DNA of 64,000 nucleotides, from positions 29,049-93,048 of the forward strand of contig DATKIP010000012.1 of NCBI GenBank assembly GCA_035544015.1. The letters are read 5' to 3'. The notes beneath the pieces are model-generated. The model ran no database searches. It had not been told where the DNA came from and worked only from the letters and a program-made list of their open reading frames with translations. How positions within the stretch are numbered: position 1 is the first letter of the stretch; every line of letters begins with the position of its first letter. Shown one piece after another: positions 4,653 through 49,100 of this stretch. The DNA is from Candidatus Saccharimonadia bacterium. GTDB taxonomy: Bacteria > Patescibacteriota > Saccharimonadia > UBA4664. The translations under genes and the position numbers were made by a program.

Positions 4653-4762
4653 ATCCGGCACCGTGCTACTTTCCCCCAGAGGAGTATCATCGCCGCAGCG
4701 GGTCTTAACTTTGGTGTTCGAGATGGGAACCAGTGTATCCCCCGCGCTAAAAGCACCGGTCT
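4653..4762 (-). rRNA. rrf: 5S ribosomal RNA
   Basis: The reverse complement reads ccggtgcttttagcgcggggg...ttcccatctcgaacaccaaagttaagacccgctgcggcgatgatactcctctgggggaaagtagcacggtgccgg. This matches the 5S consensus (CCCAUGCCGAACUCAGAAGUGAAAC region) and helix I closes as CCGGUGC/GUGCCGG. It lies about 160 nt downstream of the 23S 3-prime end. Confidence 0.85.
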
Positions 4763-4924: not shown

Positions 4925-8215
<3,291 letters not shown>

Positions 8216-13814: not shown

Positions 13815-15170
13815 GGCGTGGCTCCTTCTAGCCCAAATTGTCCCTCCTCCGCTCCGACCGCGCAAGCATTCCAAAAATGTCTAAGGCATATTATAGTAGC
13901 CCGGTCCCGAAGTTCGAACCCGCCTTCGAAGGCCTGGTGCCCGTTGAATCCACATGTCCGCAACCTCCGCCTGCTCCAAAAGATCCGCGGCCTGAACTCC
14001 GTCAGCCCGTTCGTTGGCTACGCCGTCCCGTGGCTCAGGCAAAATCAGCTCAGCCTCAGCCAAATCACGGCCCTCCAAGCCATCGCCGGGCTCGCGGCCG
14101 CGCTCACGCTCGTTCCCACCGGCTACTTCGCCGACACCTTCGGCCGGCAACGCAGCATCATCATCGGCGGCCTGAGCTGCCTCATGGGATTCGTGCTCTA
14201 TGCCGCCGGCGGCGGCTTCGCGGTCTTCGTGGCGGCCCAGATCCTCATTGCCATCGGAGCCGCCTTCATCAGCGGCGCCGACGACTCGCTGGCCAACGAC
14301 AGCCTCGAAGCCTCCGGCCATGCCGCTCAAGCCGAGGACGCCTATCACCGTTATCAAAGCACTTTGATGGGCATCGAGGGCGGCGTGGAAGCCATCGGTG
14401 CCCTCACCGCCTTTGGCCTCGTGTACTTCGTCCATGCCGACCTGCGCACACCCATGGTCCTGCAGGTTCTCGTATATGCCTGGTTGACCGCCGAGGCCTT
14501 CCGGCTACACGAAGAACCGCCTCGGGCCCGTAGGTCGACAGCCGGCTGGAGCGACCTGCGCGCCACCCTCGCCGAATGCTGGAACAACCGCGCACTCTGG
14601 TGGCAATTGTGGTTTGCCATGGCCATCGGCAGCGCCACCCACACCATGGTGTGGCTCACTCAGCCATACTTCGGGGCAGCCCACATCGGCGCGGTGTGGT
14701 CGGGTCTGCTATGGGCGGGGCTCCTGGCATCACTCGAACCCTCTCGGCGTCTGGCCGAACGCCGGCGCCGGCGCGACCAGCTCACAAGCCCCGCCAAGCC
14801 GGGGCTATGGCGCGATTGCCGAGATCTCGTGGTCATCACCACCGCCACCTACGCGCTCCTGTCGGTGCTCGCCCCGTCACCACTCACCATTGCGCTAATC
14901 CTGGCGTTTTACTACGTCCGGGCCGCTCAGTACCCGCTCAACGCCGACCGCATCCGGCGCCTCGTCCGACCCGACCGGCTGGCCACGTTTTCGTCCGTGC
15001 GCACCATGGGCGAAAATCTCGTCTACGCCGCCCTCGTCTGGCCACTCGGAATCATCGCCGACCGCTCGTTACTCGGCGCCCTGTGCGTTTCCGGTGTGGC
15101 CTACCTCGTCCTGGCCGGCCTCGGCGTCCTCATGCTACGCCGATACCTGCTGCACCCAGCTCAGCCCTGA
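13791..15170 (+). CDS. MFS transporter (true start uncertain, probably downstream of 13791)
   Basis: MFS motif A region GLAAALTLVPTGYFADTFGRQRSIIIGG followed by about 10 further TM helices. The first TM is not clearly encoded downstream of a canonical start. High GC3. Confidence 0.65.
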   Translation: MTQFRNLHGVAPSSPNCPSSAPTAQAFQKCLRHIIVARSRSSNPPSKAWCPLNPHVRNLRLLQKIRGLNSVSPFVGYAVPWLRQNQLSLSQITALQAIAGLAAALTLVPTGYFADTFGRQRSIIIGGLSCLMGFVLYAAGGGFAVFVAAQILIAIGAAFISGADDSLANDSLEASGHAAQAEDAYHRYQSTLMGIEGGVEAIGALTAFGLVYFVHADLRTPMVLQVLVYAWLTAEAFRLHEEPPRARRSTAGWSDLRATLAECWNNRALWWQLWFAMAIGSATHTMVWLTQPYFGAAHIGAVWSGLLWAGLLASLEPSRRLAERRRRRDQLTSPAKPGLWRDCRDLVVITTATYALLSVLAPSPLTIALILAFYYVRAAQYPLNADRIRRLVRPDRLATFSSVRTMGENLVYAALVWPLGIIADRSLLGALCVSGVAYLVLAGLGVLMLRRYLLHPAQP

Positions 15171-16034: not shown

Positions 16035-16111
16035 GGGCTTGTAGCTCAGCTGGTTAGAGCGCGTCACTGATAATGACGAGGTCGCAGGTTCGAGTCCTGC
16101 CAAGCCCACCA
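16035..16111 (+). tRNA. tRNA-Ile (anticodon GAT)
   Basis: gggcttgtagctcagctggttagagcgcgtcactGATaatgacgaggtcgcaggttcgagtcctgccaagcccaCCA. Cloverleaf with 7-bp acceptor stem and T-loop GGTTCGAGTCC. Confidence 0.95.
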
Positions 16112-16133
16112 TGCAATTTTAATTTTCCCTATT

Positions 16134-16255
16134 ACGAACTGGCGCCTAGTGGGTAGTGCAAGGAGAGGCGAGCACCGGAGTGAAACGTACTCAGCCGTAC
16201 GTTGAGCGAGGAGCGCAAGACTCGACACCGCAATACGCGCTAGGCGCCAGTTCGT
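16134..16255. repeat. Perfect 16-bp inverted repeat (acgaactggcgcctag / ctaggcgccagttcgt) enclosing a 90-nt GC-rich element between tRNA-Ile and tRNA-Ala
   Basis: Directly visible. TTCCCT occurs on both flanks (16124-16129 and 16256-16261). Confidence 0.6.
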
Positions 16256-16260
16256 TTCCC

Positions 16261-16336
16261 TGGGGCATTAGCTCATTTGGTAGAGCGCCTGCTTTGCAAG
16301 CAGGAGGTGGCCGGTTCGAGCCCGGCATGCTCCACC
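16261..16336 (+). tRNA. tRNA-Ala (anticodon TGC)
   Basis: ggggcattagctcatttggtagagcgcctgcttTGCaagcaggaggtggccggttcgagcccggcatgctccaCCA, with the G3:U70 Ala identity pair. Confidence 0.95.
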
Positions 16337-16409
16337 AAGGATTTATCAACAAAAACGGCTTCCAGGAGCCGTTTTTAAGTTGCTTGCCCCAACGTAGTAT
16401 ACTTTTGTC

Positions 16410-29509: not shown

Positions 29510-30969
<1,460 letters not shown>

Positions 30970-31173
30970 AATATGCTACCGGATTGCTCCGACAGACTTG
31001 GGTTCGTTTGAGCTTGGCGCTCATTCAAAAAAATTTTTCGGTTCTTTGGTAGCTTGCGCTACCGAAAACTGATGTGCTCACGGCTTTCACCGTGGCACGG
31101 TAACCAACTTCCCGCTGACGGAAAAGTTGGCCACATCATTGCACTGCACGATTAATGATTTCAAGTTGCGTTG

Positions 31174-31314: not shown

Positions 31315-32811
31315 CTACAAATTATAGTATTTAGAGCGGAGATAATCATTGTAATTCTGGCGCTGCGATTTGCGCAAAATCAGCACGAATACCCCAGCGA
31401 TGAGCAGCAATATGAACACCACGATGGCAATAAAGCTGGGCGACAAGCCGTGGTGCACCGAGGCCAGCACCGCAATCGTAGTCGCAGACGTCTGGCTAAA
31501 ATGCATGGTCGTGGTCTTGGCATCGTACACCGCGCCCTTCACCTCACTCTCGCCGCCGGAGCTATCCACGCTCACCGCGCTGGGCCGATCGTATCCCTTG
31601 AGCTTAGACTTGAGCGCAAAATTCCACGTCACCGGCTTGCTCAAATCGACGATCAGGTCACCCCCCGCGTTTTTGCACACCAACGAGTATGGCCCCGCCA
31701 CCACCGGCCGATCAGCCGTCCCGAGCTTATTGGTCGCCGCCACCACCGTACACACCGCATTCTCCACCGGCAGCGCCCCCGCTGGTACCTCCACGCCCAC
31801 GATCTGATCATCGCTCATAAAGGTCCCACCAGCCGAGTTGGCCGAGTTGGCCGCAAATCCACTAGTAGTAACGTCAGCCGCCACAACACCAGAAGTCCCT
31901 GCCGCACTCACCGCACTCAAACGATAGTAGTAGTGCACCCCAAAGCTCACCTTGTCATCACGATATTCCAACCCCGCCAGCGCATCACCCAGCGACGTCC
32001 AAGTGTTCCGATCAATCGACCGCTCCAGTTTATACGACACCCCCGCTGCCGTATCGGCTGGCGCCGCCCAGCTCAGCATGACCACCGCGTTACTCGCCAC
32101 GGCCAGCGCCTGGAAATTGCCCGGAGCCCCTTGCGGCGTCGCCGGAGCCGGCGTGGGCGCCGGCCCGCCCGTCACGGGCACCGACGTGGGCACCGCGGAC
32201 GGCTTGGGCGTCGCGCGCACCGGCGTCGGAGCCGGCTTGGGGGTCGGCGCCGCAGTCGGTGCTGGTGTCGGCGCGGCGGTCGGTACGGGCGTCGGCGTGG
32301 GCGGCACCGGCTGATAGATCCACCGCATATGATACGTATGATTGGGGAAAAACTTAAAGGTGCGCGACGAACCACCCAAAAGATTCGAAGTCTGCGGATT
32401 AAAACCGGCGCACGTATCCTGGCACACCGTCGAACCCTTCACCGTGTAGCCCCCCACCGTCACCGGCGCTACGCTTACCACATAATCCTCACCCCCCGAG
32501 ATCGCCGCCCGTCCCAAAAAATAAAACGGATTAGCCGCACTCGCGGCGGCGGCGCCACTTGAAACCCGCTTCACCGTCACGGTGGCAGTACTAAATGGTC
32601 CCGTGGTAGTACCACCATACGTCCCCCCACCCGAGTTCAAAATCTTGACGCCGTCCAAATCCGCCGTCGTCGTACTAGCCGCATACGACAAGAAAGCCGG
32701 CGTGGCAAACCCAACGGCGGCCACAAAAATTGCCCCGAGCGCAATCCGAACCCGCGCGCCATTGCGCCTCGCCTCTAACAGATGGTGCTCAAAATGATAC
32801 TGATGGGCCAT
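31315..32811 (-). CDS. Membrane-anchored surface protein with fibronectin type III domain and Pro/Thr-rich linker
   Basis: N-terminal TM (IALGAIFVAAVGFATPAFLSYAA). PTPTPVPTAAPTPAPTAAPTPKPAPTP linker. FN3-like VSYKLERSIDRNTWTSLG...YYYRLSAVSAAGTSG. C-terminal TM plus KR tail. Confidence 0.6.
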   Translation of the reverse strand: MAHQYHFEHHLLEARRNGARVRIALGAIFVAAVGFATPAFLSYAASTTTADLDGVKILNSGGGTYGGTTTGPFSTATVTVKRVSSGAAAASAANPFYFLGRAAISGGEDYVVSVAPVTVGGYTVKGSTVCQDTCAGFNPQTSNLLGGSSRTFKFFPNHTYHMRWIYQPVPPTPTPVPTAAPTPAPTAAPTPKPAPTPVRATPKPSAVPTSVPVTGGPAPTPAPATPQGAPGNFQALAVASNAVVMLSWAAPADTAAGVSYKLERSIDRNTWTSLGDALAGLEYRDDKVSFGVHYYYRLSAVSAAGTSGVVAADVTTSGFAANSANSAGGTFMSDDQIVGVEVPAGALPVENAVCTVVAATNKLGTADRPVVAGPYSLVCKNAGGDLIVDLSKPVTWNFALKSKLKGYDRPSAVSVDSSGGESEVKGAVYDAKTTTMHFSQTSATTIAVLASVHHGLSPSFIAIVVFILLLIAGVFVLILRKSQRQNYNDYLRSKYYNL

Positions 32812-32880: not shown

Positions 32881-33717
32881 CTAGCGCGATTTACGGCCAA
32901 AATTAAGCCACTTCTGCTTGCGAGCGTGATTGGCCTCGGCCGCCAAACCAGCCGGCACTTCCTTGGCCGATCCCGTCAGCAACCAAATCCCCCACACCAC
33001 CCCAACCACCATCATCAAGAGGGGCCAGAGCCGCCACGACAGATAGCTCGCACGCTCATAGGCAAACAAGCACGTCGCCAGCCCTATCCAACCCACCGTC
33101 TGCGCCGCCACAAACACCCGCGCCCGAAAACGCTTCATAACCGTCGATTTGCGATACTTACGTGCCAGCACCACGCGCAAAATCAACCCTCCAACCACCA
33201 AGGCACCAAACACCACCAGATAGGCCCATAATTCGTACCGCACCGGCAAAACCCGCACAAACGTCCCGAACTTGCCCAAATGGTCATAATTAAACAACAT
33301 CGCCAATGCCACACCCACGGCCGCACCCACCGTCACCTCGCGCGGCTGATGACCCAAAATCTCCCGGATACGCGGCGGCGGCTCGTCGAGCTTAAAACGG
33401 TTTCGGTCGAGATTTTGCAGCAGCATATTGAGCGCCATGGCCTGCTCACCCGAGGAGCGCCGTACCCCAAACGAATCGTACATCACGATCACGGCCAAAA
33501 TCGCCGTCAATCCAAACAGGTGACTACCCGCACCATCCACCAAAAATGACGTGGTAGCAAGCGAAGTCACAACCGCCGAATGAACGCTCGGCATACCGCC
33601 CGAGGCATAGAGATACCGGAAGTCGATACGGCCCTTCATGGCCTCGATCGCAAACTTAGCGACCTGTGCTACCGCCCATGTAGCGAGCGGAACAGCGATA
33701 TAGGGATTGTAAACCAC
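32881..33717 (-). CDS. Divergent PAP2 (DUF212/YuiD-like) membrane protein with extra C-terminal TM region
   Basis: YASGGMPSVHSAVVTSLA is the YuiD-type divergent PAP2 signature. Confidence 0.7.
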   Translation of the reverse strand: MVYNPYIAVPLATWAVAQVAKFAIEAMKGRIDFRYLYASGGMPSVHSAVVTSLATTSFLVDGAGSHLFGLTAILAVIVMYDSFGVRRSSGEQAMALNMLLQNLDRNRFKLDEPPPRIREILGHQPREVTVGAAVGVALAMLFNYDHLGKFGTFVRVLPVRYELWAYLVVFGALVVGGLILRVVLARKYRKSTVMKRFRARVFVAAQTVGWIGLATCLFAYERASYLSWRLWPLLMMVVGVVWGIWLLTGSAKEVPAGLAAEANHARKQKWLNFGRKSR

Positions 33718-33783: not shown

Positions 33784-36018
33784 TTATCGCCGCTTAAGTT
33801 TGCGATCAATGGTGGCAAGCGCCCCCGCCACCAGCATCACGAGCGCCGAGATGATAAACATGAAGCTCATGTTTTTGGCCTTGGTTTCAGCCAACACTGC
33901 CTTGGGCGAAGTTTGCGCCGCCGCCGTTAGCACCGTGCCGTTGCCGCCTGCTGTCACCTGGGTCGCCGCACCAGCCACCGCACCGCCGCTACTACCCGCC
34001 ACCAGTGGCTTCACAAACGCCAGCAGGCCCACCGCCGGCACAGCGGTACTGGGCGCCGACGACGACGCGGTTGCATTCATAGACGCCTTGCCGGCCTCGG
34101 TCGAGAATCCGCCTGCCGCCGTGTCGTTGTTGACGTCACCGGTCCAGTCGCCAAAGACGTTGATCACGAGCACCCCAAACCAGTGCTTCACGTTGAGAAC
34201 CGCGTTAAAGAAGTTGGCCACACTCGAATTAGCCGAGGCATCACCGGTCGTCACATTGCCCACACCCGTGTTGTGATCCACATTGGCATCGCCGCTCTGT
34301 GCGTTCACGTTAACGTTGTTGGTAATGCTGCCGGTAGCATTTTGGTTGATCGTGACGTCCGAGCCGTTGTTTACGTTCACGGCGTTGTTCGAACCAGCAC
34401 CGGTGTCGTTGATCCCCACGTTGGCGTTGCCGGTAAGCAGCGCAGTCTGGGTGCTACCCGTACCGGGCAGGGTCATAATTTTGCCCACCCAGTGGCCCAA
34501 CACGTTCACCATCACCAGCACTGCATTGTCGCCAAAAATAGTGTTATTGGCCAGGTTAAACAAGCTCTGGGTCGTGGAAGCGGCGCCGGTCTGCACATCG
34601 CCCACGCCCGTGTTGGCATCCACGTTCGCCGCACCCGTACCGGCTGTGGTCGAGATATTGTTGTTTACTCCATTGGTGCTTGTGCTATTGATGGTCGTCG
34701 AGCCACCATTATTGATGTTCACCTGGTTGTTCGAATCTGGCCCCGTACCCCCGATGCCCACCGTTGAAGACGTCAGCAGCCCATTCAGGAACCCATCCGG
34801 AAACAGGATGTCACCGTTGAGGTTGCCAAGAATGTTAAGCACTCCGAAAAACGAGCTCCCAGAGCTAATAAACGAGTTGATGAGGTTAATAATATTCACT
34901 TCAGCCGCCGCATTCCCCGTACCCACATTGCCAGCCAAGGTATTGCCAGACACATTCGCGTTACCACTTTGCGCGTTCAGATCGACATTGTTGGTAATAT
35001 TACCCGAGCTCTGGGCGTTAACATTAAGCCCACCCGGGTTGTTCACGTCCACCGTATTATTCGAACCCGAACCCGTACCGTCAATATTGACGTTCGTGCC
35101 GCCCAGTTGGCCACCCCCGCCCTGAACCGTCTGCGTGGGGTTGAGCGTAATATCGCCGGTGTGAGGCGCAAAGAACGTCTGCATAAAGAAGCTCAAATTG
35201 CCGTTCGACCACGACCAAGCCGAAGCCAACAGGTTGATGAGGTTGGCCACCACCGTGGCCGCACCGGTTGAGGTATTACCCACCTGCGTATTGCTCGTAG
35301 CCGACGCGTCACCGGAAGCCGCATTGCTCTGCAGCGTGTTAATCACGTTCACCAGGCTTGTGAAATCAAACCAACTCTGGCCGCCGCCCGCCGCGCTGGC
35401 CTGGGTAGCCGCACCAGCCCCCGCAGCACTAGCGCCCGCAGGCAGCAAAATGCCACCGCCACCGGTCGTGAGCAACCCAAGCGCCTTGGCCGTCTGGTAG
35501 TCCTGCGAACCCACAACCAGATCACCCAGCACGGTATGAACCACGTTGGGGGCCGTCAAATAGGTTGGGTTGCCGGCTGCCACCGACGCCGGAACGATCT
35601 CGTACCAGCTGGTGTGCTTATCAAAGTAATACAGCGGCGAGAGGTAATACCCCGTAGCCTTATCGCAGCTAAAGGTACTCTTATCGGCCGCCACCCAGAC
35701 ACGGCTCACCGTATCAAACACCCAGCTCGGGATCACGCCGCCGCACCCATCCGGACCAATGTCGGTAGATTTTTTCTTGGGCGTCGGAGTGGGCGTGGGA
35801 GTCGAGCTCGGCTCGGGCGAGGCCGAAGGCTCAGGCGAGGCGCTGGGGCTCGGCGAGGCCTCAGGCGACGGCGAAGGATTGGCCGACGGACTTGGCGACA
35901 CCGACGGGCTCGGCGACGGTGTCGCGTCGTCTTCGGCCGCAGCCGCGGTCGTCCAGCCCAATTGAGCCACGATCATAAGCGCTGCTAACGTTGCTGAAAA
36001 AAATTTACGGTATCTCAT
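33784..36018 (-). CDS. Secreted repeat protein (744 aa): signal peptide, PS-rich linker, Cys-containing globular domain, four curlin-like N/G/T-rich repeat units each ending in a hydrophobic motif, C-terminal TM anchor
   Basis: MRYRKFFSATLAALMIVAQLGWTTAAAA, then (SPSP)n. Repeats such as TGPDSNNQVNINNGG...NTGVGDVQTGAAS, INDTGAGSNNAVNVNNGSDV..NAQSGDANVDHNTGVGNVTTGDASA, and NAQSGNANVSGNTLAGNVGTGNAAA. Hydrophobic motifs INLINSFISSGSSFFGVLNILGNL. C-terminal FMFIISALVMLVAGALATIDRKLKRR. Confidence 0.6.
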   Translation of the reverse strand: MRYRKFFSATLAALMIVAQLGWTTAAAAEDDATPSPSPSVSPSPSANPSPSPEASPSPSASPEPSASPEPSSTPTPTPTPKKKSTDIGPDGCGGVIPSWVFDTVSRVWVAADKSTFSCDKATGYYLSPLYYFDKHTSWYEIVPASVAAGNPTYLTAPNVVHTVLGDLVVGSQDYQTAKALGLLTTGGGGILLPAGASAAGAGAATQASAAGGGQSWFDFTSLVNVINTLQSNAASGDASATSNTQVGNTSTGAATVVANLINLLASAWSWSNGNLSFFMQTFFAPHTGDITLNPTQTVQGGGGQLGGTNVNIDGTGSGSNNTVDVNNPGGLNVNAQSSGNITNNVDLNAQSGNANVSGNTLAGNVGTGNAAAEVNIINLINSFISSGSSFFGVLNILGNLNGDILFPDGFLNGLLTSSTVGIGGTGPDSNNQVNINNGGSTTINSTSTNGVNNNISTTAGTGAANVDANTGVGDVQTGAASTTQSLFNLANNTIFGDNAVLVMVNVLGHWVGKIMTLPGTGSTQTALLTGNANVGINDTGAGSNNAVNVNNGSDVTINQNATGSITNNVNVNAQSGDANVDHNTGVGNVTTGDASANSSVANFFNAVLNVKHWFGVLVINVFGDWTGDVNNDTAAGGFSTEAGKASMNATASSSAPSTAVPAVGLLAFVKPLVAGSSGGAVAGAATQVTAGGNGTVLTAAAQTSPKAVLAETKAKNMSFMFIISALVMLVAGALATIDRKLKRR

Positions 36019-36138
36019 GGGTAACTGCCTCTCCCCCTTTTACGATCTTACTAACGTGCTGGTCAGATAATTGCTGGGCAGGGAGCGCTAAGCGCTCCCT
36101 GCGGGAACCAAAACCCCCTGCAGGGTCAAATCACCAAA

Positions 36139-36729
36139 CTAGTTGGTGAAGTTGACGACCGTGCTGGTGGTGCTGGTGTTCGCAGCACTACCCGTAGAAA
36201 CGCCACCGGCGGTGGTGTTGTGAGAAGCGCTAGCGTTACCGCTCTGGGCACCCTGGACGGTAACGTTGCTCACCTGAGCCTCGTTCACGTTGGTGACTGT
36301 CACGTTGTGCTCGTTGTTGACGTGCACTTGGTTGTTCGAGTCAGGACCAGTGGTGCTCATGGTAACCACGGTCGGGTCGGCAGCACCCCAGCCAGCGAGA
36401 GCCGACAGGCCGGCGCCCATGCCGTTGTTCACACCGACGACCGTCGAGGTGGTGCTGACGTTCGCAGCGTTGCCCGAACCTACACCGCCAACGGTGGTGT
36501 TCTGGTGAGCCGAAGCATCACCCGAAGCGGCACCCTGGCCGGTGAAGTTGCCTACGGCAGCCACGTTCAGGTTGGTGCTGTCGAAGTTGCTGCTGTTGTG
36601 CAGGACAACTTCCTGGTTCGAGTCGGGGCCGGTGTGGTCGAACGTTACGGTGCTGGCGGCGGCGAAGCCGGCCATGCTTACGGTAGCCATACCAATGGCT
36701 GCGTAGCGGAGGATAGAAGTCTTAATCAT
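36139..36729 (-). CDS. Secreted curlin-like repeat protein (196 aa), candidate major subunit
   Basis: Signal peptide MIKTSILRYAAIGMATVSMAGFAAA. Two repeats: TGPDSNQEVVLHNSSNFDSTNLNVAAVGNFTGQGAASGDASAHQNTTVGGVGSGNAANVSTTSTVV and TGPDSNNQVHVNNEHNVTVTNVNEAQVSNVTVQGAQSGNASASHNTTAGGVSTGSAANTSTTSTVV. Followed by a perfect 10-bp stem-loop (36079-36101). Confidence 0.6.
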   Translation of the reverse strand: MIKTSILRYAAIGMATVSMAGFAAASTVTFDHTGPDSNQEVVLHNSSNFDSTNLNVAAVGNFTGQGAASGDASAHQNTTVGGVGSGNAANVSTTSTVVGVNNGMGAGLSALAGWGAADPTVVTMSTTGPDSNNQVHVNNEHNVTVTNVNEAQVSNVTVQGAQSGNASASHNTTAGGVSTGSAANTSTTSTVVNFTN

Positions 36730-36793
36730 TGTTAAGATCCTTTCGTTTAGTTTATGTAGGTCTTTAGTACCGGGCCCGAGGGCCCGCCGGTCA

Positions 36794-37306
36794 CTACTGC
36801 GAAACGCTCACGTGATCGGCACCAGTACTAAAGATCGAAGTATTGTTGTAGCTCGAGGAACCATTGTTCGAGCTGTAGCTGGAGCCATAAACCTGGGTAA
36901 CCCCTGAATTTGTGCCTCCGCTGGTTTGCGAGCTCATGTTGATTTCAACATTGCCGCTCTGGTTGTTCGAGGTATCCCCGCTGGTGCCACTGTCATTCGT
37001 GGTAATCCGAGTGTGTCCACCAGACACCTCAACATGGGCCTTACCGTTACCTGCCGGCACATCGGCGCTTCCATCCCTATCGGTTGGAACCTGTGTGCCG
37101 TTAACCGTGACCGTCGAGGCGGCGGTCGGTGCGGGCGACTCGGCAGTTTGGGCCTGGACCGTAGCTGAGTTAGCCCCAGTCACGGCCGCCTTTGAGCCCC
37201 GGCCGCCGGTCTGACCGCTGACCATCAAAGCCAGCCCCAACGTCACAACTCCCGCCGGCAGTACCCATTTGGCTTTTTTAATGTCCGTGAAACTCACCTT
37301 TTTCAT
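36794..37306 (-). CDS. Secreted low-complexity S/G/N/T-rich protein (170 aa)
   Basis: Signal peptide MKKVSFTDIKKAKWVLPAGVVTLGLALMVSG. No TM. Followed by hairpin 36770-36790. Confidence 0.5.
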   Translation of the reverse strand: MKKVSFTDIKKAKWVLPAGVVTLGLALMVSGQTGGRGSKAAVTGANSATVQAQTAESPAPTAASTVTVNGTQVPTDRDGSADVPAGNGKAHVEVSGGHTRITTNDSGTSGDTSNNQSGNVEINMSSQTSGGTNSGVTQVYGSSYSSNNGSSSYNNTSIFSTGADHVSVSQ

Positions 37307-37310
37307 CTCT

Positions 37311-37979
37311 CTATACCCTCTCTTCTCTTCGCCGGGCGTACCAGGCGCTGCCCAATGCTCCGAGCAAGCTCAAAAGCGTGGCTGTTAGCAGCATGGCGCC
37401 GGTGAAAAGACGTGAACCTTTGGCTAATGCCGCTGTCGGGGCCGCACCTTGCGGATGCCAAGCAGCCCGCAAAGCCGACACGTCCATAGGCACGGACGCG
37501 CCCACTGCGGGCAATGTCGCAGCGCCGGCACCAAGGCCGCCAACGGTCGAAGCGCCGAGGACACTACCGCCGCCGGTCGTCGAGCCGTTGCTCACTCCGC
37601 CAGTGCTACCGCTACCAGGGTTGGTGCCAGTACCAGGCCCAACCACGGGCGGCACGCCGGGCGTGTTCGAAACCCCAATCGTGGTAGTGGTGTCGTTGTT
37701 GTTCGAGGCATTACCCGACTGAACCAGACCGCCAACGCTGGTATTACTGTTGGCCGAAGCCCCACCGGACGTCGCTTGCTGAACATTTTCATTCGTCACC
37801 TGCACAATGTTCGTATTGCTCACACTTACGTTCGACGAATTGTCGATAACTACCTGTTGGTTCGAACCCGGACCGGTAGTACCGATCGAAACATTATCCG
37901 CGGCCAAAGCCGAACCGGAGACGCCAAAGGCCAAACCACACACCACCGAGGCCGCACCCAAATATCGTCGTACTATCAT
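37311..37979 (-). CDS. Curlin-like repeat protein with signal peptide and C-terminal TM anchor plus basic tail (222 aa)
   Basis: MIVRRYLGAASVVCGLAFGVSGSALAA; TGPGSNQQVVIDNSSNVSVSNTNIVQVTNENVQQATSGGASANSNTSVG; C-terminal LFTGAMLLTATLLSLLGALGSAWYARRREERV. Start overlaps the upstream stop (ATGA). Confidence 0.55.
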   Translation of the reverse strand: MIVRRYLGAASVVCGLAFGVSGSALAADNVSIGTTGPGSNQQVVIDNSSNVSVSNTNIVQVTNENVQQATSGGASANSNTSVGGLVQSGNASNNNDTTTTIGVSNTPGVPPVVGPGTGTNPGSGSTGGVSNGSTTGGGSVLGASTVGGLGAGAATLPAVGASVPMDVSALRAAWHPQGAAPTAALAKGSRLFTGAMLLTATLLSLLGALGSAWYARRREERV

Positions 37980-38980
37980 ATGTATCTCCTCCTTTCTAAA
38001 AGCGTTGGGAGCACAGAAGTTAAGCTTTTCGTCTCTGACACCATAAAAATTGGGCTATGCGTTGACCGAATGGCCGTTACATAACCCAAGGGGAATGGTG
38101 TAGCGAAAAAAGTCTTTACCATGGCACTGGCCACATCGCTCCGAGCAGCATGAGCATAGCCGCCCTGCCGCATCCAGGTTCCGAATACCGATACTACCCG
38201 CCGGAGTGCGAGCGAGACCATCAGGGCCAATACCATCAAACTAACCACCAGCCCCACAGGAGCCGCATCCAGAGCAATCAAAAAGTACGGAACCACGCTA
38301 CCAGCCAGCGTCAACGTAAGCCGTCCAAACACTCCCGTAGGCTGCTGCGGCGCCGGAACATTGCTGGGCTTTTGGGCTACTGCCGGCGCCGAAGGAAGCG
38401 CCGTCGCCAAATCTTCCACCACAGCCGGCCGGCCGGTAGTAATACGAGGCTGAATCGTCAATACGGCAGCATGATAACGAGCCGCGGCCGCCTGCCCGTC
38501 AGCACCCGAAGCCATCCCACCCCCGCCGGACGCAGCGCCACTACTCGTCGGCACGTTCACGGTAATCGTAGCCGGACCCTCATGGCTCGGCGCCGCCACG
38601 CCAGCATCGCCGTCGGACGGCTGAGTGGGCTGGACCGGATCGGGCACGGTCGCCGCCCCCAAACCACCACCCGATGCATCAGACTCTGGTTGCCCAACGA
38701 CAGCTCCGTTGCCTAATCCCGGCGCATTATCAGACCCACCCGTCGGACCAGAAACACCAGGCGTTGACCCAGCACGCGGCTCTGCGCTCGCCCGGGGAGA
38801 ATCATCCACGGCCAGCTTCACCAAGGGCACCTCAGCCGCACTCGCCTCGGCTTGGGTAGGAGTTTGAGAAATCACGCCTGCGCCACCATCGGCGGCGTAC
38901 GCGCTACCACTCAAAACTACCGCCAAACCGCCACTAGCGGCAAGGCTAAGAAGGACCTCTACTGACTTTGCTAACCTCAT
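37976..38980 (-). CDS. Secreted/membrane protein (334 aa): signal peptide, Gly/Ala/Pro-rich region, C-terminal multi-TM segment. First gene of the operon.
   Basis: MRLAKSVEVLLSLAASGGLAVVLSGSAYAA, then a low-complexity region, then VVPYFLIALDAAPVGLVVSLMVLALMVSLAL. Preceded by a 240-nt AT-rich promoter region. Confidence 0.5.
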   Translation of the reverse strand: MRLAKSVEVLLSLAASGGLAVVLSGSAYAADGGAGVISQTPTQAEASAAEVPLVKLAVDDSPRASAEPRAGSTPGVSGPTGGSDNAPGLGNGAVVGQPESDASGGGLGAATVPDPVQPTQPSDGDAGVAAPSHEGPATITVNVPTSSGAASGGGGMASGADGQAAAARYHAAVLTIQPRITTGRPAVVEDLATALPSAPAVAQKPSNVPAPQQPTGVFGRLTLTLAGSVVPYFLIALDAAPVGLVVSLMVLALMVSLALRRVVSVFGTWMRQGGYAHAARSDVASAMVKTFFATPFPLGYVTAIRSTHSPIFMVSETKSLTSVLPTLLERRRYI

Positions 38981-39223
38981 GCAACCCCTCGATCAATAGT
39001 GAACGTAGAACCATCAGTGCAACTGACACATACCCAACATTAGCCCTATGTCTGATGCCCAACATTGGATGTATTAACAAAAGATTAAATAAAAATTAAC
39101 TTATTTATTGTGAGTTTAACTATAAATACGTACGACTCTTCGCCCTCAGGCTCGTATCTCAACAACAGATACGTAGCCGGCGGATGGTCGCGCTGGAACA
39201 ATTACTAGCCCCGAAAGTAAAAG

Positions 39224-41758
39224 CTACTCAGCCGACTCAGGCTCAGTCACCGCCACAGCATCCTCAAGCTCAGTCTCGCCCACCAGCGCCACCGACGCCA
39301 CCTTATCGTCCTCAGCCATCCGCATCACCCGCACGCCCTGAGTCGCCCGGCCGATGAGCGAAATGTTGGCCAGCGCCATCCGGATCACCTGACCCTGGGT
39401 ACTCACCACCACCACCTCATTGCGCGGATCACTAATCCCCCGCACGTCCACCGTCTTACCGGTCTTGGCCGTCACCACGCCCGCCTTAATGCCTACGCCG
39501 CCACGCGCATGCGTCGCAAATTGATCCACCTTGGTGCGCTTGCCGTAGCCGTTTTCCATCACCACCAGCATCTCCATACCGGCGCGTACCACATCCATGC
39601 CCACCGCAGTATCACCGCTACGCAGTCGAATACCCCGCACGCCGCGCGTTGCCCGGCCCATCGGCCGCACTTCACTCTCCTTAAACCGAATCGCCTGCGC
39701 CAACGCCGTCGAAATAATAATCTCGTCTTTGCCACTCGTCAGCTTCACCCATTTCAGCTCATCGCCGTCGTCCAGCTTGATCGCAATCAAACCATTCGCC
39801 CGCACATTCGCGTAATCCGCCAAGGGCGTCTTCTTCACGGTTCCCAGCTTGGTCGCCATAAACAAATACAAATGGTCCACTTTGCTATCAAATGTCACAA
39901 GCGACGTCACCTTTTCGCCTTGTCCCAGCTGCAGCAGATTCACCACCGGCTGGCCTTTGGCCGTTCGCGAAGCTGCCGGAATTTCGTAAACCTTCAGGCG
40001 GAATACCCGGCCTTTATTGGTAAAGAACAGCATGTAGTCGTGGTTTTGCGTCAGGAGTAGGTGCTCCACCACATCTTCTTCTTTGGTGGTCATACCCATA
40101 ATGCCCTTACCGCCACGGCCCTGACTCTTGTAAGTGTTCGCCGGAATGCGCTTGATATAATTGCCCGTTGTAAGCGTGACAATGACTTGTTCGTTTGGCA
40201 CCAGCTCCTCTTCCGAGAACTTGCCCAATTCACTTCCCACAATCTGTGTGCGCCGGTCGTCGCCATATTTGGCCTTGATCTCTTCCAGCTCCTCTCGAAT
40301 CACTCGCAAAATCTCGCTTTCGCTAGCCAAAATCTTCTCCAGCTCAGCAATCAGCTTGCGCAGCTCTGCCAGCTCGTCTTCGATGCGTTGGCGCTCCAGG
40401 CCCGCCAGCGACCGCAGCTGCATACCCAAGATCGCCTTGGCCTGAATCTCGCTGAGCTTAAACCGCTCCATCAAATTCGTACGCGCCTCATCGGTCGTCT
40501 GCGAAGCCCGAATCACTTTGATGACCTCATCGATGTGATCCAGCGCCAGCTTGAACCCTTCCAGGATGTGCGCCCGATCCTTGGCTTTGCGAAGCTCAAA
40601 CTCCGTACGCCGCCGCACCACAATCTGCCGGTGCTTCAGGTATTCGCGCAGCATCATTTCCAGGCTCAGCACCCGCGGCTGACGGCCGTTGTCCACCAAC
40701 GCCAGCATGTTCAGGTGGAAAGCCGTCTGCATCGGCGTCAGCTTATAGAGCTGGTTGAGCACTTTCTTCGGGTAGCTGTCTTTCTTGAGGTCAATCACCA
40801 CCTTCGTACCATGGCGGTTGCTTTCGTCGCGCAAGTCGCTAATGCCCACCACGCGCTTGTCTTTCACCAGCTCGGCAATTTTCTCCACCATCGTAGCGCG
40901 GTTCACGGCGTAGGGAATCTCGGTGATCACAATCGACTCGTGACCCTTTTTGTCTTCCTTGATCTCCGCCTTGGCCCGCACCACCACACTGCCCTTGCCT
41001 GTACCATACGCCTGCCGAATCGAATCATTGCCAAAAATAATGCCGCCGGTCGGAAAATCCGGACCTTTCACGCAGGTCAGTAGGTCGTCGAGCGTCACAT
41101 CTTCTTTGTCGATGATCATCACGATCGCGTCTACCAGCTCGCTCAAATTGTGCGGCGGAATGTTGGTAGCCATGCCCACGGCGATACCCATCTGGCCGTT
41201 GAGCAAAAGGTTTGGCAGCTTGGCCGGCAACACCGACGGCTGCTTCTTTGAGCCGTCATAGTTGGGCACGAAGTCCACCGTGTCTTTTTCGATATCGAAG
41301 AGCATCTCCTCGGCAATCCCCGCCATCCGCGCCTCGGTATAGCGCATGGCGGCCGGCGAGTCGCCGTCCATTGAGCCAAAGTTACCCTGGCCATCCACCA
41401 GCGGGTAGCGCATCGAAAAATCCTGCGCCATACGCACCATGGCGTCGTAAATAGCACTGTCGCCGTGCGGGTGGTAATTACCCATCACATCACCCACTAC
41501 CGACGCGCTCTTGCGATATTTGGCCGTATGCCGCAGGCCCAAATTATTCATCACATAGAGAATTCGCCTATGCACGGGCTTTAATCCATCGCGCACATCT
41601 GGCAGCGCCCGCGACACAATCACCGACATCGCATACGCCAAATAGCTCGTTTCCATCTCGGTCTCGAGTTTTTGCATCCGCACCGTGCCGATGTCGGTCT
41701 TGATGACTTCGGGCTCTTCTTCCGGATTTTCTAGGTTTTCGATTTGCTCTTCGTCCAT
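39224..41758 (-). CDS. gyrA: DNA gyrase subunit A
   Basis: [40 protein letters not shown], active-site region ...[10 protein letters not shown], and C-terminal beta-pinwheel repeats. Immediately downstream of gyrB. Confidence 0.95.
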
Positions 41759-41768
41759 GCCAGTTCCC

Positions 41769-43910
<2,142 letters not shown>

Positions 43911-43990: not shown

Positions 43991-45535
43991 TTGCCAGATC
44001 AGCCTCGAAGCCGTACAATTGCGCTAATGTTTAGAAAGATCGTTTCTCAGCTCTCGCTATCACCGAGTGCCGTCAGCCAGCTGACGTTCTACGCGCGTCG
44101 CCTGGGCAAGGAACGTGTCACACGCACGTTCACCGTGATCGCCGGCGTGCTGCTGGTGGGCCTCCAAAGTGCCGTCGTACTCGGCCCGCCCACCCCCTCC
44201 AACGCCGCCTCCCCGAGCGACATCATCCACGGCGGCATCGTCTCCCAGGCCGACCTTCTCAACCGCTACGACGAGAGCGCTGAGCTCCAGGCTATCTACA
44301 ACCGCCTCGGCATCAGCCGTGCCGACCTCCAAAACACCAAAAAAGCCACGGTCAACACCAAGGATCGCACCCTCAAATCTATCGGCCGCAGCCAGCACTC
44401 CGCCAGCGACTACGAAGTCACCATCGGGACCCACACCTATTGGATGCAGCCCCTGTACCAATGGGATACCGGCTCCAATGTTTACAACGGCTCAAACTAC
44501 GACGTACTCCAAGGCACCCGCTCACGCGACGGCAGCTATTTTGCCGTCATGTTCCACTGCGGCAATATTATCAGCAAAACTTACCCACCAACCCCAACCC
44601 CCACCCCCAAACCGACACCCAAGCCAACTCCCAAACCTACACCGACCCCCACCCCAAAGCCCACGCCAACACCCAAACCCAACACGCCCACGCTAGCCTG
44701 TGTCAAACTCACCCCCAGCACCACTTCGGGCGATGTGCCGCTGAAGGTAAATTACACCGGCTCCGGCACCGCTACCGGCCAAACCGTGGCCTCCTACAGC
44801 TTCGATTTCGGCGACAATAGCCCCACCGCCACGAGCGCCGCTCCCGCCGCTAGTCATACCTACACCACAGCCGGCAGTTTCGTCGCCACCATGCGCGTCA
44901 AAGGCTCGTTGGGCGCCACCACTGCCGTCACCAGCGCCTGCAGCGCCACCATTACTACCGCTGCCATTCCGCCGAGCTTCACCAAGGCCAAATCTGCCCT
45001 CAACCTCACCCAAAACATCGACGCCGTCACCAAGCCCGCAGGTGCCGGTGACCTCGTCAAATACCACCTCAGCACCAAAAATATCGGCGGCAGCGCTGGC
45101 GACTACACCGTCGTGGAACACATTACCGATGTGCTCGAATACGCCGACGTTACCGACCTCACCGGGGCCACCCTCACCGACGGCGTACTCACGTGGCCGG
45201 CGCAGTCCATTGCCCCCGACGCCACCCTCGTGACCACCTTCACGGTCAAAATCAAAGACCCCATCCCCACCACTCCCGTCGGCATCTCCGACAAAAATTC
45301 CTTCGACCTCCGCCTCGACAACGTCTACGGCACCACCGTCCAGATCACCCTCACTCCCCCACCCGCCAAGCAAGTTGAAATCGCCGCCGCTACCCTCCCA
45401 GACACGGGTGGCGCCACCAGCACCCTCGTCGTACTCCTCGTGAGCGGGCTCAGTCTCTTCTTCTACTTCCGCAACCGCCAACTCCTCACCGAAATCAAAT
45501 TACTACGCGGCGAATTCCAAGGAGGAACCCAGTAA
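43991..45535 (+). CDS. LPXTG-anchored surface protein with PT linker, PKD domain and DUF11-like repeat (sortase substrate). Likely start at MFRK, about 44027.
   Basis: C-terminal LPDTGGATSTLVVLLVSGLSLFFYFRNRQ is a sorting signal. YSFDFGDNSPTATSAAPAASHTYTTAGSFVATMRV is a PKD motif. TPTPTPKPTPKPTPKPTPTPTPKP linker. Confidence 0.75.
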   Translation: MPDQPRSRTIALMFRKIVSQLSLSPSAVSQLTFYARRLGKERVTRTFTVIAGVLLVGLQSAVVLGPPTPSNAASPSDIIHGGIVSQADLLNRYDESAELQAIYNRLGISRADLQNTKKATVNTKDRTLKSIGRSQHSASDYEVTIGTHTYWMQPLYQWDTGSNVYNGSNYDVLQGTRSRDGSYFAVMFHCGNIISKTYPPTPTPTPKPTPKPTPKPTPTPTPKPTPTPKPNTPTLACVKLTPSTTSGDVPLKVNYTGSGTATGQTVASYSFDFGDNSPTATSAAPAASHTYTTAGSFVATMRVKGSLGATTAVTSACSATITTAAIPPSFTKAKSALNLTQNIDAVTKPAGAGDLVKYHLSTKNIGGSAGDYTVVEHITDVLEYADVTDLTGATLTDGVLTWPAQSIAPDATLVTTFTVKIKDPIPTTPVGISDKNSFDLRLDNVYGTTVQITLTPPPAKQVEIAAATLPDTGGATSTLVVLLVSGLSLFFYFRNRQLLTEIKLLRGEFQGGTQ

Positions 45536-46139: not shown

Positions 46140-49100
46140 TTAGCCGATCACCACATTACCCTGCTCATCCACGTACACCTCACCAGGGGCTAATTTTTTG
46201 GGCTTCTCTTCCTTTGGCTTATCAAGTTCCGCCGCCGGCTTCTCACCGGTGGGCAGGATAAGCTTACCGGTCATCGAACCCGCTTCCCTAGCCGCAGCCG
46301 TCGGCTGGTTGTGCTCGGCCTCAGCCTTGCTGACAATCACCTCCGCCGGCTTCTCGCGACCACGCCCGCCCCGATGACGCCGACGCGGCGCATTGCGACT
46401 ACCACCGTCAGCTGAGCCGGCCGGAGCGGCCGCGCTCTCAGCGGCCGCGGGCTTCCGATTCACGACAGGCTCGGCCGTCTCCTCCGGGCGCGCTACGCCC
46501 ACGGGTGGTTCGGGGTTGCGAGCCATCACCGCCGTCGCTTGACGCTCCGCGCGGGCCTTGGCCACATCGTCCGCCGCCAATGACTGCGCTTGCGGCAATC
46601 CCTCGTCCTCATCGGCAGCCGCTGAAGCCGGCGGTGGCTCCGGCGAGAGAACCATAGCCCCCGCATGCTTAATGATGGCCGGCGCATCAGCCTCCACCGC
46701 CGGTACCGCTGGTGCTACCGGTGGCTCCACCGAAGCCGCCGGGACCGGCCGCTTCGGCTCTGCCGGCGCCTTCGCGGGAGATGCCACGGCCGGCGCTGGG
46801 GTCGGTGGCGGAGTTTGATTCACCGCCGGCGAGGCCGAGACCGGCTGAGGTTCCGGCGCTGAAACCGCAGCGGCCGGGCCTTTCACAATCTGCGCCGCCG
46901 TACCCGCCGTCTCGCGATTAAGCTCCGCTATCTCACGCGCAAACCGCTCCTTCGACGACTCAATCGGCTCTAGTGGCTGAATAACCTTCAGCCCGTGGTG
47001 CTGCGCCGCCGTCCTAGCGTTCGCAGCCGATGCCCCTGTTGACACACCCGGAGCAGTATTGAGCTCAAGATCACCGCCCGGTTGATCTTCCATTCGAGGT
47101 CCCGCCACCGGCTCGGGCAAACGCCGATGTTCCGCCGTAGCCTCAGGGTGAATAAGAGCTGCACTCATCACCGTATCAATTTCGTGCTCCGCTTTCTCGA
47201 TCTGGGCTGATGGCGACAACTCATTAGTCGTCGCCGGCGCTTTTTCAACCTCCGGCGACGACCCTTCAAGCACCAAAGCCTCTGCTTTCGGCGCCTCCGG
47301 CTCCGATACGATGAGTGTCGACGACGTCACGGCCGGCACTGGTTCCGCCGGCACCGGCTTAGGCGGCGCCGAATGCTCCGGCGCCTCCACGACCGACTGA
47401 GGGGTCGGCGCGGACTCCGCATTATCGTGCTGAGACTCCGCCGGAGGCGCCATCGATTCCGGCAAACTTTCCGCTACACTCACCACATCATCCAGACCCT
47501 GCGATGCATTTGCCAAGGCCGGGGCAGAAACCGGAACTGCCGGAGGCTGAGCCGACCCCGTATTCGCAATACTCGCCGCCAGCTCAGCCTGACCCACCGG
47601 AACTTGAACCGGCGCGGGCGCCGGCGGCGATGCTACAACGGGCGCGGGTAGGGGTTCAGGTACAGGCACGGGTTCCGCCGGCGCCGGCTCGACCAAAGCA
47701 ATTCCCTCCGGAAGACCATTTAGTGAAGGCTTACCATCGGCCGCCGATTCCTCACTTGGCGCCTCCGGGCTATTGAGCAATGATTCCGCCGCCGGATCCA
47801 CAAAGTGAATCAACGGCTCGGGCGGCTGTGGCTCCGCCGGGGATACCGGCTCGGGCACTGGGGTTCGCGGAGCCGGCTCAGCCATTGCCACCGAAGAAGC
47901 TGCGGGCGCCACTGGCATCACCGGGGTCTGAACTTCCTCCGGAACCGCCGCAGCAACCTCAACCGGCACCATCGGCTCAGGCGCTGGCGGCGTATCCTGA
48001 ACAGCCGGTAATACCGGCGGCGCCTCCACCATCGGCGGCTCAACCGGCGGCGCGGGTTCCGGCGCGCGCAACGGCTCCTGCACAGACAATGCGGCCGGCT
48101 CAACCGGCACCACCGGCAGAGGCCCACTGGCTACCACCGGCTGCGGCTCTGGCTCCGGACGCACCACCGGTTGAGGGGCAACCGCCACCGCTACTGGAGC
48201 CGACGGAGCAATGGGAACGACCGGAACAGCCGGAGGGGGCGCAGCCGCCGGAACCACCGGCGCCGCACCCAGCACGTCAACCCCCGCATAGGGATCATCC
48301 GGCAAAGCCCCACCCTCGCCCACCAACCCCGGCTCTACCAGAGGCTCCGGCGCCTCAGCGACACGTGGCGCAGTCTCGGGCGCCGCTGCACCCAGCACAT
48401 CAATATTCGCATACGGATCATTCTCAAGCGGCTGTCCATCGCCCACAAAGGCCTGATTACTCGCCTCACCCAACAACGGAATTTCACCCAACGACGGCGA
48501 CTCGGACTGGCTGGCCGACTGGCCGCCACCTCCCGTAATATCATTAATGGACAACGTCCCCCCGCCAGCCGGAGGCACCGAAACTCCAGCCACCGGCCTC
48601 GGGTCTCCAGGCAGATCCACCGGTGGCGCTCCAATCGGAGGCGGAGTCGTGGCGGCACCGGTCACAGCCGGAGCCGCCGGCGCAACCGCCGCTGCAGCCT
48701 GCGCTCGATCACCCGCCGCCGCAATTTGTTGCGCCAATTCATCGGCTGCGTTTGCCGGAGCTGCCGGTATTGGCGCCACAGGCTGTTGCACCGGCGGCGC
48801 CACGGCCTCCCGAAAAGCCGGCGCCACCGCACCCAAATCCAGCGGCTGAACCGCGGGCCGCGGGGTTACCACCGGCAACGGCGGCACACCCGCACCCGGC
48901 GCCGGCAGATCAACCGGCGGCGCACCAATCGGAGGCGGAGTCACCGAAAGGCCCACGGGAGCCGGCGCTGGGGCAGGCGGCGGCGGGGGGGGTGCAGCAG
49001 CAGCTGACGCCGAGTCAGACGTCAAAGCCAGCGCCGCCAACGGATCAAGTTGCGCCGCCGCCGAAACCGGAGGCGCCGGAAATGCCACGGGGGCAGGGGT

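Follow-up and report, generated by a model that had tools for sequence, protein, structure and literature searches.

The stretch of DNA considered here (the window) comprises 64,000 nucleotides (nt) of a Candidatus Saccharimonadia bacterium (assembly GCA_035544015.1, contig DATKIP010000012.1, positions 29,049 to 93,048 of the forward strand; the coordinates below are those of the window). Directly downstream of gyrB and gyrA it carries a cluster of five genes for exported proteins of 334, 222, 170, 196 and 744 amino acids (aa), and a repeat of about 70 residues common to three of these proteins is the subject of this contribution. An earlier examination of the letters alone (the sequence-only reading) had picked out these five open reading frames (ORFs), and their coordinates, lengths and minus-strand orientation are all as it gave them. 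The features of the locus are listed in the order in which the minus strand is read.

41769-43895: gyrB, upstream of gyrA
39224-41758: gyrA, directly upstream of the five-gene cluster
38981-39223, minus strand: AT-rich intergenic region between gyrA and the 334-aa gene, probable promoter region of the cluster
37976-38980, minus strand: ORF, 334-aa gene
37311-37979, minus strand: ORF, 222-aa gene
36794-37306, minus strand: ORF, 170-aa gene
36770-36790, minus strand: hairpin GCGGGCCCUCGGGCCCGG, then UACUAAAG, between the 170-aa and 196-aa genes
36139-36729, minus strand: ORF, 196-aa gene
36066-36125, minus strand: intergenic RNA element (palindrome, stem and motif) between the 196-aa and 744-aa genes
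33784-36018, minus strand: ORF, 744-aa gene

The genes are tightly packed: the first two share 4 nt, a further 4 nt separate the second from the third, and gaps of 64 nt and 120 nt precede the 196-aa gene and the 744-aa gene, respectively. The region next to gyrA that had been singled out as AT-rich is indeed so, with a GC content of 41.6% overall and 22% in its core (39060-39140), compared to 59% in the cluster. Since a scan of 38981-39223 for the sigma-70 consensus found no site, the promoter of the cluster is placed there only as a probable location. All five proteins begin with a signal sequence that looks Sec-type, as judged from the translations, with cleavage sites of the AxA type (AAA↓S, ALA↓A, AYA↓A), and the residues N, G, S, T, A, Q and V make up 60-83% of the five mature proteins; the signal peptides and the low-complexity composition had both been claimed before. 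The description of the locus as a cluster of co-oriented, tightly packed genes for exported proteins, with anchored and unanchored paralogues among them, is thus supported, the repeat being common to three of the five.

Related loci were collected by scanning one genome per species with the alignment of the 744-aa family. The resulting 34 loci are labelled Saccharimonadia, Saccharibacteria or Patescibacteria, except for two Parcubacteria, one Nanoarchaeia and a few that are named simply 'bacterium'. A search of related genomes for the five-gene order had been proposed, and a BLAST map of the 34 loci revealed the order gyrB-gyrA-334-222-170-196-744-DUF212-498 (the last two genes are described below) in about 28 species-level Saccharimonadia genomes, i.e., more often than chance would give, with gyrA identities of 71-92% across the syntenic loci. 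The 196-aa protein matches at full identity a hypothetical protein from a Candidatus Saccharimonadia metagenome-assembled genome and has 69 homologues, almost all of 190-203 aa, and the 744-aa protein has 227, which are 37-68% identical to it across the full length; orthologues of the 334-aa protein are found at the equivalent position in at least 16 loci and those of the 170-aa protein in 12. Because orthologues of matching length are present in the same order in many genomes, the five ORFs are real genes, and they are vertically inherited. The many long overlapping ORFs on the opposite strand of this GC-rich region, together with the extreme composition of the proteins, may raise the suspicion that the five ORFs are spurious products of low-complexity, GC-rich sequence. 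This reading, to which we assign next to no chance, is refuted by the conservation data: every one of the five has length-matched orthologues in conserved order in many genomes, and the conservation is position-specific, including invariant Gly, Asn, Gln and Trp columns.

The repeat and the five proteins

All ORFs of the window were searched with a repeat profile derived from 58 homologues of the 196-aa protein. The profile matched the 196-aa protein (two units, E = 1.9e-70), the 744-aa protein (four units, E = 6.9e-25) and the 222-aa protein (one unit, E = 1.9e-22), and no further window ORF was matched. When orthologue alignments were compared by hhalign, the 222-aa family matched the 196-aa family at 99.9%, whereas the 170-aa and 334-aa families scored 18% and 2% against the repeat profile. 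The set of proteins sharing the repeat, which had been put at four, is therefore cut to three, and the 170-aa and 334-aa proteins are ruled out as repeat paralogues. The 334-aa and 222-aa families do match each other at 86%, with the match confined to the N-terminal ~90 alignment columns, which we read as the signal-peptide region.

The repeat is about 70 aa long and can be written as TGPxSxN-x12-NxNxVxVxNxNxQxAxSGxxxxxxNTxxGxxxSGxAxNxxxTxxxV. A unit thus opens with TGPxSxN, continues with the alternating run NxNxVxVxNxNxQxAxSG and the NTxxGxxxSGxAxN segment, and closes with a final strand; the alternation of conserved N, V, Q, A and S positions indicates a single conserved face of beta-strands. 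An exhaustive profile search over 1.84 billion cluster representatives returned 2068 of them at E <= 1e-3, of which 989 also pass E <= 1e-10. The relatives carry from 2 to 7 repeats, and the closest 150 mostly have no anchor and end exactly on the last repeat strand (...SN). A variable number of repeats combined with a fixed end suits an elongated, stackable unit. The members to which a separate homology search gave names are almost all from Patescibacteria: they come from Saccharimonadia, from Microgenomates (Daviesbacteria, Gottesmanbacteria and Woesebacteria), from Andersenbacteria and from other Patescibacteria. More regular, acidic variants of the repeat are found in proteins named just 'hypothetical' from Daviesbacteria, Gottesmanbacteria, Woesebacteria, Andersenbacteria and other Patescibacteria. 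Dehalococcoidales is the label of one partial hit, and one distant relative (P0445) carries the Joint Genome Institute label 'spore coat protein C'; these two are the sole hints of an occurrence outside Patescibacteria or of a functional label.

Scans of the five proteins against Pfam and NCBIfam at E <= 1, with the models for curlin, chaplin, TasA and SLH among those searched, yielded nothing relevant, and neither the SLH domain (PF00395) nor any other known S-layer family was matched. Pfam likewise gave no match for nine divergent members of the repeat family. Sequence and profile searches of the PDB produced only a proline-rich low-complexity match, and a full-text literature search found no paper describing the family. 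The profile comparison with known fibre families that had been recommended was thus carried out with no curlin, chaplin, TasA or SLH match, and the expectation that the proteins belong to no described family stands, the Pfam, NCBIfam and PDB searches having found no relative. As judged by these searches, the repeat defines a large unnamed family with no database entry that is widespread in bacteria of the Candidate Phyla Radiation (CPR).

The repeat had been described as curlin-like, and this claim has to be abandoned. Compared by hhalign with Escherichia coli CsgA, the 58-sequence repeat profile gives a probability of 1.2%, with the alignment confined to the signal peptides. Curlin_rpt (PF07012) is not matched at E <= 1 in any of the five proteins, and the unit is of about 70 aa here versus about 20 aa in curli. 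The csgG, csgE and csgF families were not found in Pfam scans of 36 window ORFs, i.e., nearly all ORFs of at least 150 aa outside other genes and rRNA genes. Homology with curlin is ruled out and the resemblance is one of composition; the curli analogy fails as homology, and what remains of it is a loose mechanistic comparison.

The three proteins show the repeat in three different contexts: free in the 196-aa protein, on a stalk with a sorting signal in the 222-aa protein, and in four copies with a transmembrane (TM) segment in the 744-aa protein. The repeats of the 196-aa protein are encoded at nt 36424-36651 and 36142-36369, and no anchor is present. Its mature form contains no Lys, Arg or Cys, and because it lacks Lys and Arg it would escape trypsin-based proteomics even if it were abundant. 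We propose this protein as the putative major secreted subunit.

The 222-aa protein consists of a signal peptide, one repeat (aa ~33-105) and a Gly/Ser-rich linker, followed at the C-terminus by LPAVG (nt 37500-37514), DVSALRAAW, a TM segment (nt 37335-37409) and the tail RRREERV; it has no Cys in its mature form. In the 744-aa protein, the signal peptide is followed by a Pro/Ser linker, a conserved Cys-containing globular domain (aa ~88-183) and four extended repeat units (aa ~213-294, 312-410, 424-519 and 538-630). Each of these is extended by a conserved hydrophobic beta segment, e.g., NIINLINSFIxSGSSFFGILNIFGNLNGDILFP and NAVLVIVNVLGHWVGK. The C-terminus is made up of a low-complexity linker, VLTAAA (aa 696-701), a TM segment (aa 719-737) and RKLKRR, so that the four repeats, hydrophobic motifs and C-terminal TM anchor ascribed to this protein are all present.

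A terminal TM anchor had also been ascribed to both the 222-aa and the 334-aa proteins. This is correct for the former, whose TM segment is followed by the short basic tail; in the 334-aa protein, a conserved tail of 75 aa (RRGGYAHAARSD...FATP) extends beyond the TM segment (aa ~223-259), which is preceded by a signal peptide and a low-complexity outer region with a conserved QPRIT motif. The 170-aa protein is rich in Ser, Thr, Asn and Gly, has an N-terminal hydrophobic anchor or signal (aa 14-31), and its family shares a conserved VTVNG...GKAxVEVS motif.

Modelling of the 196-aa protein had been suggested as a test for a beta-solenoid. The AlphaFold2 model built from the family alignment is all-beta but of low confidence, with a mean predicted local distance difference test score (pLDDT) of 57, and does not establish a beta-solenoid. 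For the 744-aa protein, the mean pLDDT is 64.6; it exceeds 90 in the second halves of the repeats together with the hydrophobic extensions and reaches 82-92 in the N-terminal domain, and the model includes a terminal TM helix. The models resemble beta-helix proteins and not immunoglobulin (Ig) folds, and Foldseek found no match to them in the PDB. They would fit a stacked, solenoid-like arrangement, the fold family being not established.

The C-terminus of the 222-aa protein bears on the route of export. In its orthologues from gyrA-linked loci (n = 26), the equivalent position is occupied by LPxTG in 12 and by LPxVG in 14, the canonical forms being LPVTG, LPQTG, LPETG, LPLTG, LPATG and LPDTG; a conserved DVSALRA motif, a TM segment and then a basic tail come next. 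In the protein of the window, LPAVG leads into a conserved AS.P.DVSALRA segment and about 30 more residues before the TM segment. In two distant loci, a one-repeat protein ends with LPQTG (locus L002) or LPFTS (locus L004), to which a TM segment and a basic tail are directly joined, and its gene adjoins a sortase gene and lies beside a pair of still adjacent 196-like and 744-like genes. The LPxTG/LPxVG signal and these sortase-adjacent counterparts suggest that the 222-aa protein either is or derives from a sortase-type substrate. More than half of CPR genomes are reported to encode sortases (PMC6744442). In the 744-aa protein, the conserved VLTAAA is all that accompanies the TM segment and the basic tail. 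The sequence-only reading had stated that no LPXTG is present at the locus, which is literally true, the motif being LPAVG here, but does not hold at the level of the family, where about half of the orthologues have LPxTG. It had also concluded that export would be unconventional. Given the Sec signals on all five proteins, the sorting signal of the 222-aa family and the sortase genes adjacent to its distant counterparts, this need not be so. Type IV pilins were considered as well and rejected: the N-termini are classical Sec signals and not class III signal peptides, which have a short basic leader and G↓F/M-T-L-x-E.

RNA hairpins bracketing the 196-aa gene

The stem-loops and the palindrome noticed earlier around the 196-aa gene are present. 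Past its stop codon, the intergenic element contains the palindrome CCCTGCAGGG (36116-36125), a stem of 10-11 bp with a 3-nt loop (36078-36102) and a conserved motif GCAATTATC (36066-36074), for which the consensus is GCA(A/C)T(T/C)ATC. A near-perfect stem of 7-13 bp follows the 196-aa stop codon in 27 of 27 gyrA-linked loci. No two of the 27 stems are alike in sequence, with 3-6 pair types per position when pairs are counted with the sequences anchored on the stem (the counts are thus fitted to the structure), and each stem stops -1 to +3 nt from the GCA(A/C)T(T/C)ATC motif. When the sequences were folded one by one and compared with shuffled controls, z was below -2 in 28 of 32 loci, with a mean of -3.1. 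RNAalifold returned no structure for a MAFFT alignment of the hairpins because the stems are out of register in that alignment, and Rfam has no match to the element. The motif follows the hairpin at once here and at the orthologous positions of loci L001-L039, and in the window the combination was found only between the 196-aa and 744-aa genes. The possibility that it represents a genome-wide terminator was rejected: the GCAATTATC motif has only two further copies in the window, of which the one inspected has no hairpin and the second falls inside an ORF of 1872 aa.

On the other side of the 196-aa gene, a GGGCC-loop-GGCCC hairpin (36770-36790) is kept in sequence in all 12 orthologous loci examined. 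Hairpins had been claimed after every gene of the cluster, and this is true for two of the five only: the first two junctions are the overlap and the 4-nt gap mentioned above, and no conserved hairpin is present downstream of the 744-aa gene. The suggestion that hairpins set the stoichiometry of the subunits fares better, since the hairpin after the 196-aa gene is conserved and covaries in 27 of 27 loci, which fits such a role. We infer that the two hairpins may act by partial termination or by protection of transcript ends, raising the amount of 196-aa mRNA, and such an arrangement around the 196-aa gene would be the one expected for a major subunit.

Neighbouring genes and other features of the window

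Two genes of the conserved order lie downstream of the cluster.

32881-33717, minus strand: divergent PAP2 (DUF212) membrane protein, Pfam DUF212 E = 2.5e-38
31315-32811, minus strand: 498-aa Pro/Thr-rich protein, weak fn3 match (E = 0.046), C-terminal TM segment

The DUF212 gene is syntenic in all gyrA-linked loci and is preceded by a conserved -10-like TACAAT (AAAAACCGcTACAAT). Its product has 278 aa, of which the domain takes up residues 4-137 only (the corresponding Southlakia gene is of 429 nt); the extra C-terminal half is hydrophobic and resembles added TM segments. The 498-aa gene sits between the DUF212 and 16S rRNA genes, and one or two homologues are found there in most loci. The cultured oral species Southlakia epibionticum has the order gyrB-gyrA-divergent PAP2-16S rRNA (SEML1_0145-0148), with no other genes in between (PMC10633639 supplement), and its PAP2 gene was scored essential (PMC10633639). 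Since this backbone exists without them, the five genes together with the 498-aa gene look like a clade-specific insertion, and the DUF212 gene belongs to the ancestral backbone and is not part of the repeat cluster.

On either side of the gyrBA block, further exported proteins with domains of the Ig type are encoded, namely the 498-aa protein (31315-32811, weak fn3 match) and a 514-aa PKD protein (43991-45535), the latter of which recurs in locus L005/L006. With an fn3-type domain and a TM segment at the C-terminus, the 498-aa protein may be similar in layout to PamR of the Pam pilus considered below. Upstream of gyrB, the 1872-aa ORF (46140-51758) has weak matches to the TrwB coupling protein and to the HerA P-loop family and may encode a type IV secretion coupling-type ATPase; at the matching position, Southlakia has a 'TraM recognition domain-containing protein' that was scored essential (PMC10633639). 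Two adjacent minus-strand genes at 1867-3273 (468 aa) and 3301-4488 (395 aa) encode proteins that share a near-identical N-terminal stretch (...VVVVAIFAAGTFSAFEPENGTLSG..ASGG.AVQFG); they have no Pfam match and appear to be paralogous exported proteins.

Spans related to rRNA and tRNA are found at 29512-30973, 4929-8183, 4653-4760 and 16035-16337. About 21 kb of protein-coding genes lie between the 16S rRNA gene (29512-30973) and the 23S-5S pair, as do, on the opposite strand, the genes for tRNA-Ile and tRNA-Ala. At 3255 nt, the 23S match is longer than the 2925 positions of the model, which suggests one or more insertions. ARAGORN reports an 89-nt tRNA-Ala(ggc) at 14566-14654, within the ORF of a major facilitator superfamily transporter (13791-15170); Rfam does not report it, and the call is probably a false positive.

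A putative surface structure and its alternatives

Several known surface systems are comparable to the cluster in one respect or another. The nearest in logic are the chaplins of Streptomyces, Sec-exported proteins of single-membrane bacteria that share the PF03777 domain and come in long sortase-anchored (ChpA-C) and short secreted (ChpD-H) forms, much as the 222-aa and 744-aa proteins stand beside the 196-aa protein here. The chaplin repeat, however, is of about 40 aa, hydrophobic and with two Cys, whereas the repeat described here is of about 70 aa, polar and free of Cys, and PF03777 has no match at E <= 1 in the five proteins; there is no homology. TasA and TapA of Bacillus subtilis, also a single-membrane bacterium, are a secreted fibre subunit and an accessory anchoring or nucleating protein encoded by a small operon. 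The pairing of a secreted subunit with an anchored partner is similar here, but the composition and the repeat architecture are different, and no Peptidase_M73/TasA match was found in Pfam.

Sortase-anchored LPXTG proteins are like the 222-aa family in having LPxTG or LPxVG, a hydrophobic segment and a basic tail; they differ in that the motif is LPAVG here, a conserved insert of about 35 aa (DVSALRA...) precedes the TM segment, and the window has no sortase. Sortase-built pili differ in that the proposed subunit, the 196-aa protein, has no sorting signal and ends at the last repeat strand, and neither an Ig-like (CnaA/CnaB) Pfam match nor a predicted Ig-like pilin fold was obtained. The Pam pili of Candidatus Mycosynbacter amalyticus are composed of two-domain Ig-like pilins of 39-55 kDa assembled by donor-strand exchange with PapD-like chaperones, and their genes are located near those of the ATP synthase (bioRxiv 10.64898/2026.03.03.709456). 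Both systems are specific to CPR bacteria or Saccharimonadia, depend on Sec, are organised as an operon with membrane-anchored helpers and have no envelope-spanning machine. The proteins described here, in contrast, have Asn-rich repeats, no Ig or PapD signatures in Pfam and non-Ig models, and their genes are beside gyrA. Identity with the Pam operon was rejected because of its described architecture and genomic context.

Taking together the conserved genes, the homology of the repeat in three proteins, the topology signals, the covarying hairpins and the linkage to sortase genes in relatives, we propose, with a probability of roughly 45%, that the cluster encodes a cell-envelope surface structure of an environmental Saccharimonadia clade, built from a previously undescribed ~70-residue all-beta repeat. 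All five proteins would be exported by Sec. The 744-aa protein would be held in the membrane by its C-terminal helix and would display four repeats, with the hydrophobic extensions forming their stable core, and the 222-aa protein would carry one repeat on a Gly/Ser-rich stalk fixed to the wall or the membrane through its sortase-type signal. The 196-aa protein, two bare repeats with no anchor, would be the abundant free subunit, its repeats packing beta-to-beta with the anchored repeats and with each other to give a fibril or coat on a single-membrane cell. The hairpins on both sides of its gene would raise its mRNA over that of the neighbours by partial termination or end protection, and the 334-aa and 170-aa proteins may be membrane-tethered accessory factors.

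Several observations weigh against this proposal. The cluster is absent from the gyrA-PAP2-16S locus of Southlakia epibionticum; it is therefore not universal in Saccharibacteria, and no general requirement for it can exist in this group. About 35 aa separate the LPAVG motif of the 222-aa protein from the TM segment, an atypical spacing in a sortase signal, and no sortase gene is present in the 64-kb window or, in the gyrA-linked loci, within 10 kb. Finally, a U-tract is missing after both hairpins, so that they can be regarded as putative terminators only.

The same proteins could instead act independently. Each would be displayed by itself as a surface adhesin or glycan-binding protein that does not polymerise and has a beta-helix-like fold, and would bind the walls of actinobacterial hosts or environmental polymers, the 196-aa protein being a soluble or loosely bound lectin. 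We consider this unlikely, though it deserves to be taken seriously. Conservation is high and uniform for adhesins (50-68% identity and fixed lengths in many species), the conserved residues form a buried-looking Asn/Val ladder and not a variable binding face, and the presence of free and anchored forms of the repeat in one operon, with RNA elements flanking the free form, would be left unexplained. A true functional amyloid of the curli or chaplin type, with the 196-aa subunit nucleated outside the cell by the 222-aa protein, the 744-aa protein or both, would be a special case of the surface structure that we propose; homology lends it no support, and we hold it to be distinctly unlikely.

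It is also conceivable, if improbable, that the cluster forms no outward structure at all but is a module of cell-wall biogenesis or maintenance that organises or measures a wall zone together with the PAP2-type phosphatase. The synteny with the PAP2 gene is invariant, this gene is the one scored essential in Southlakia, a YkuD L,D-transpeptidase, an Amidase_2 and a C39-like peptidase are encoded elsewhere in the window, and the long Gly/Ser/Pro linkers could span the wall. The PAP2 gene, however, adjoins gyrA even where the five genes are missing and has a promoter-like element of its own, and for these reasons its adjacency to the cluster looks like the result of an insertion into the backbone and not like a functional operon. 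In addition, the Pfam and NCBIfam scans detected no enzymatic or peptidoglycan-binding domain in the five proteins.

The surface structure can be pictured in a bolder form, which is speculative and, in our opinion, unlikely. The repeat proteins would then represent an unrecognised class of self-assembling beta-solenoid polymers, widespread in CPR bacteria, in which the 744-aa protein, as a membrane-anchored template with four repeats, and the 222-aa protein, as a sortase-type anchor with one, nucleate the end-on stacking of the abundant secreted 196-aa protein, and the supply of the subunit is set by the pair of RNA hairpins. The resulting coat or fibrils would serve soil Saccharimonadia in contacting their hosts and would be similar to functional amyloids, with an evolutionary origin separate from that of curli, chaplins, Fap and TasA.

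The cluster is genuine and conserved and encodes an uncharacterised system. Bacteria of the CPR (Patescibacteria) account for a large share of bacterial diversity and live attached to other cells, and to our knowledge the proteins of their outer surface are almost entirely unknown. Besides type IV pili, the Pam pilus, described in a 2026 preprint, was the only CPR-specific surface filament that our literature search found. Should the proteins turn out to be ordinary adhesins, the repeat would still be a well-delimited new domain family worth a database entry. If they indeed build a polymer or coat at the cell surface, one of the major structural components of the CPR envelope would have been identified, the absence of its subunit from standard proteomics would be explained by a mature form with no tryptic sites, and a concrete and testable handle on the contact of these bacteria with their hosts would become available.

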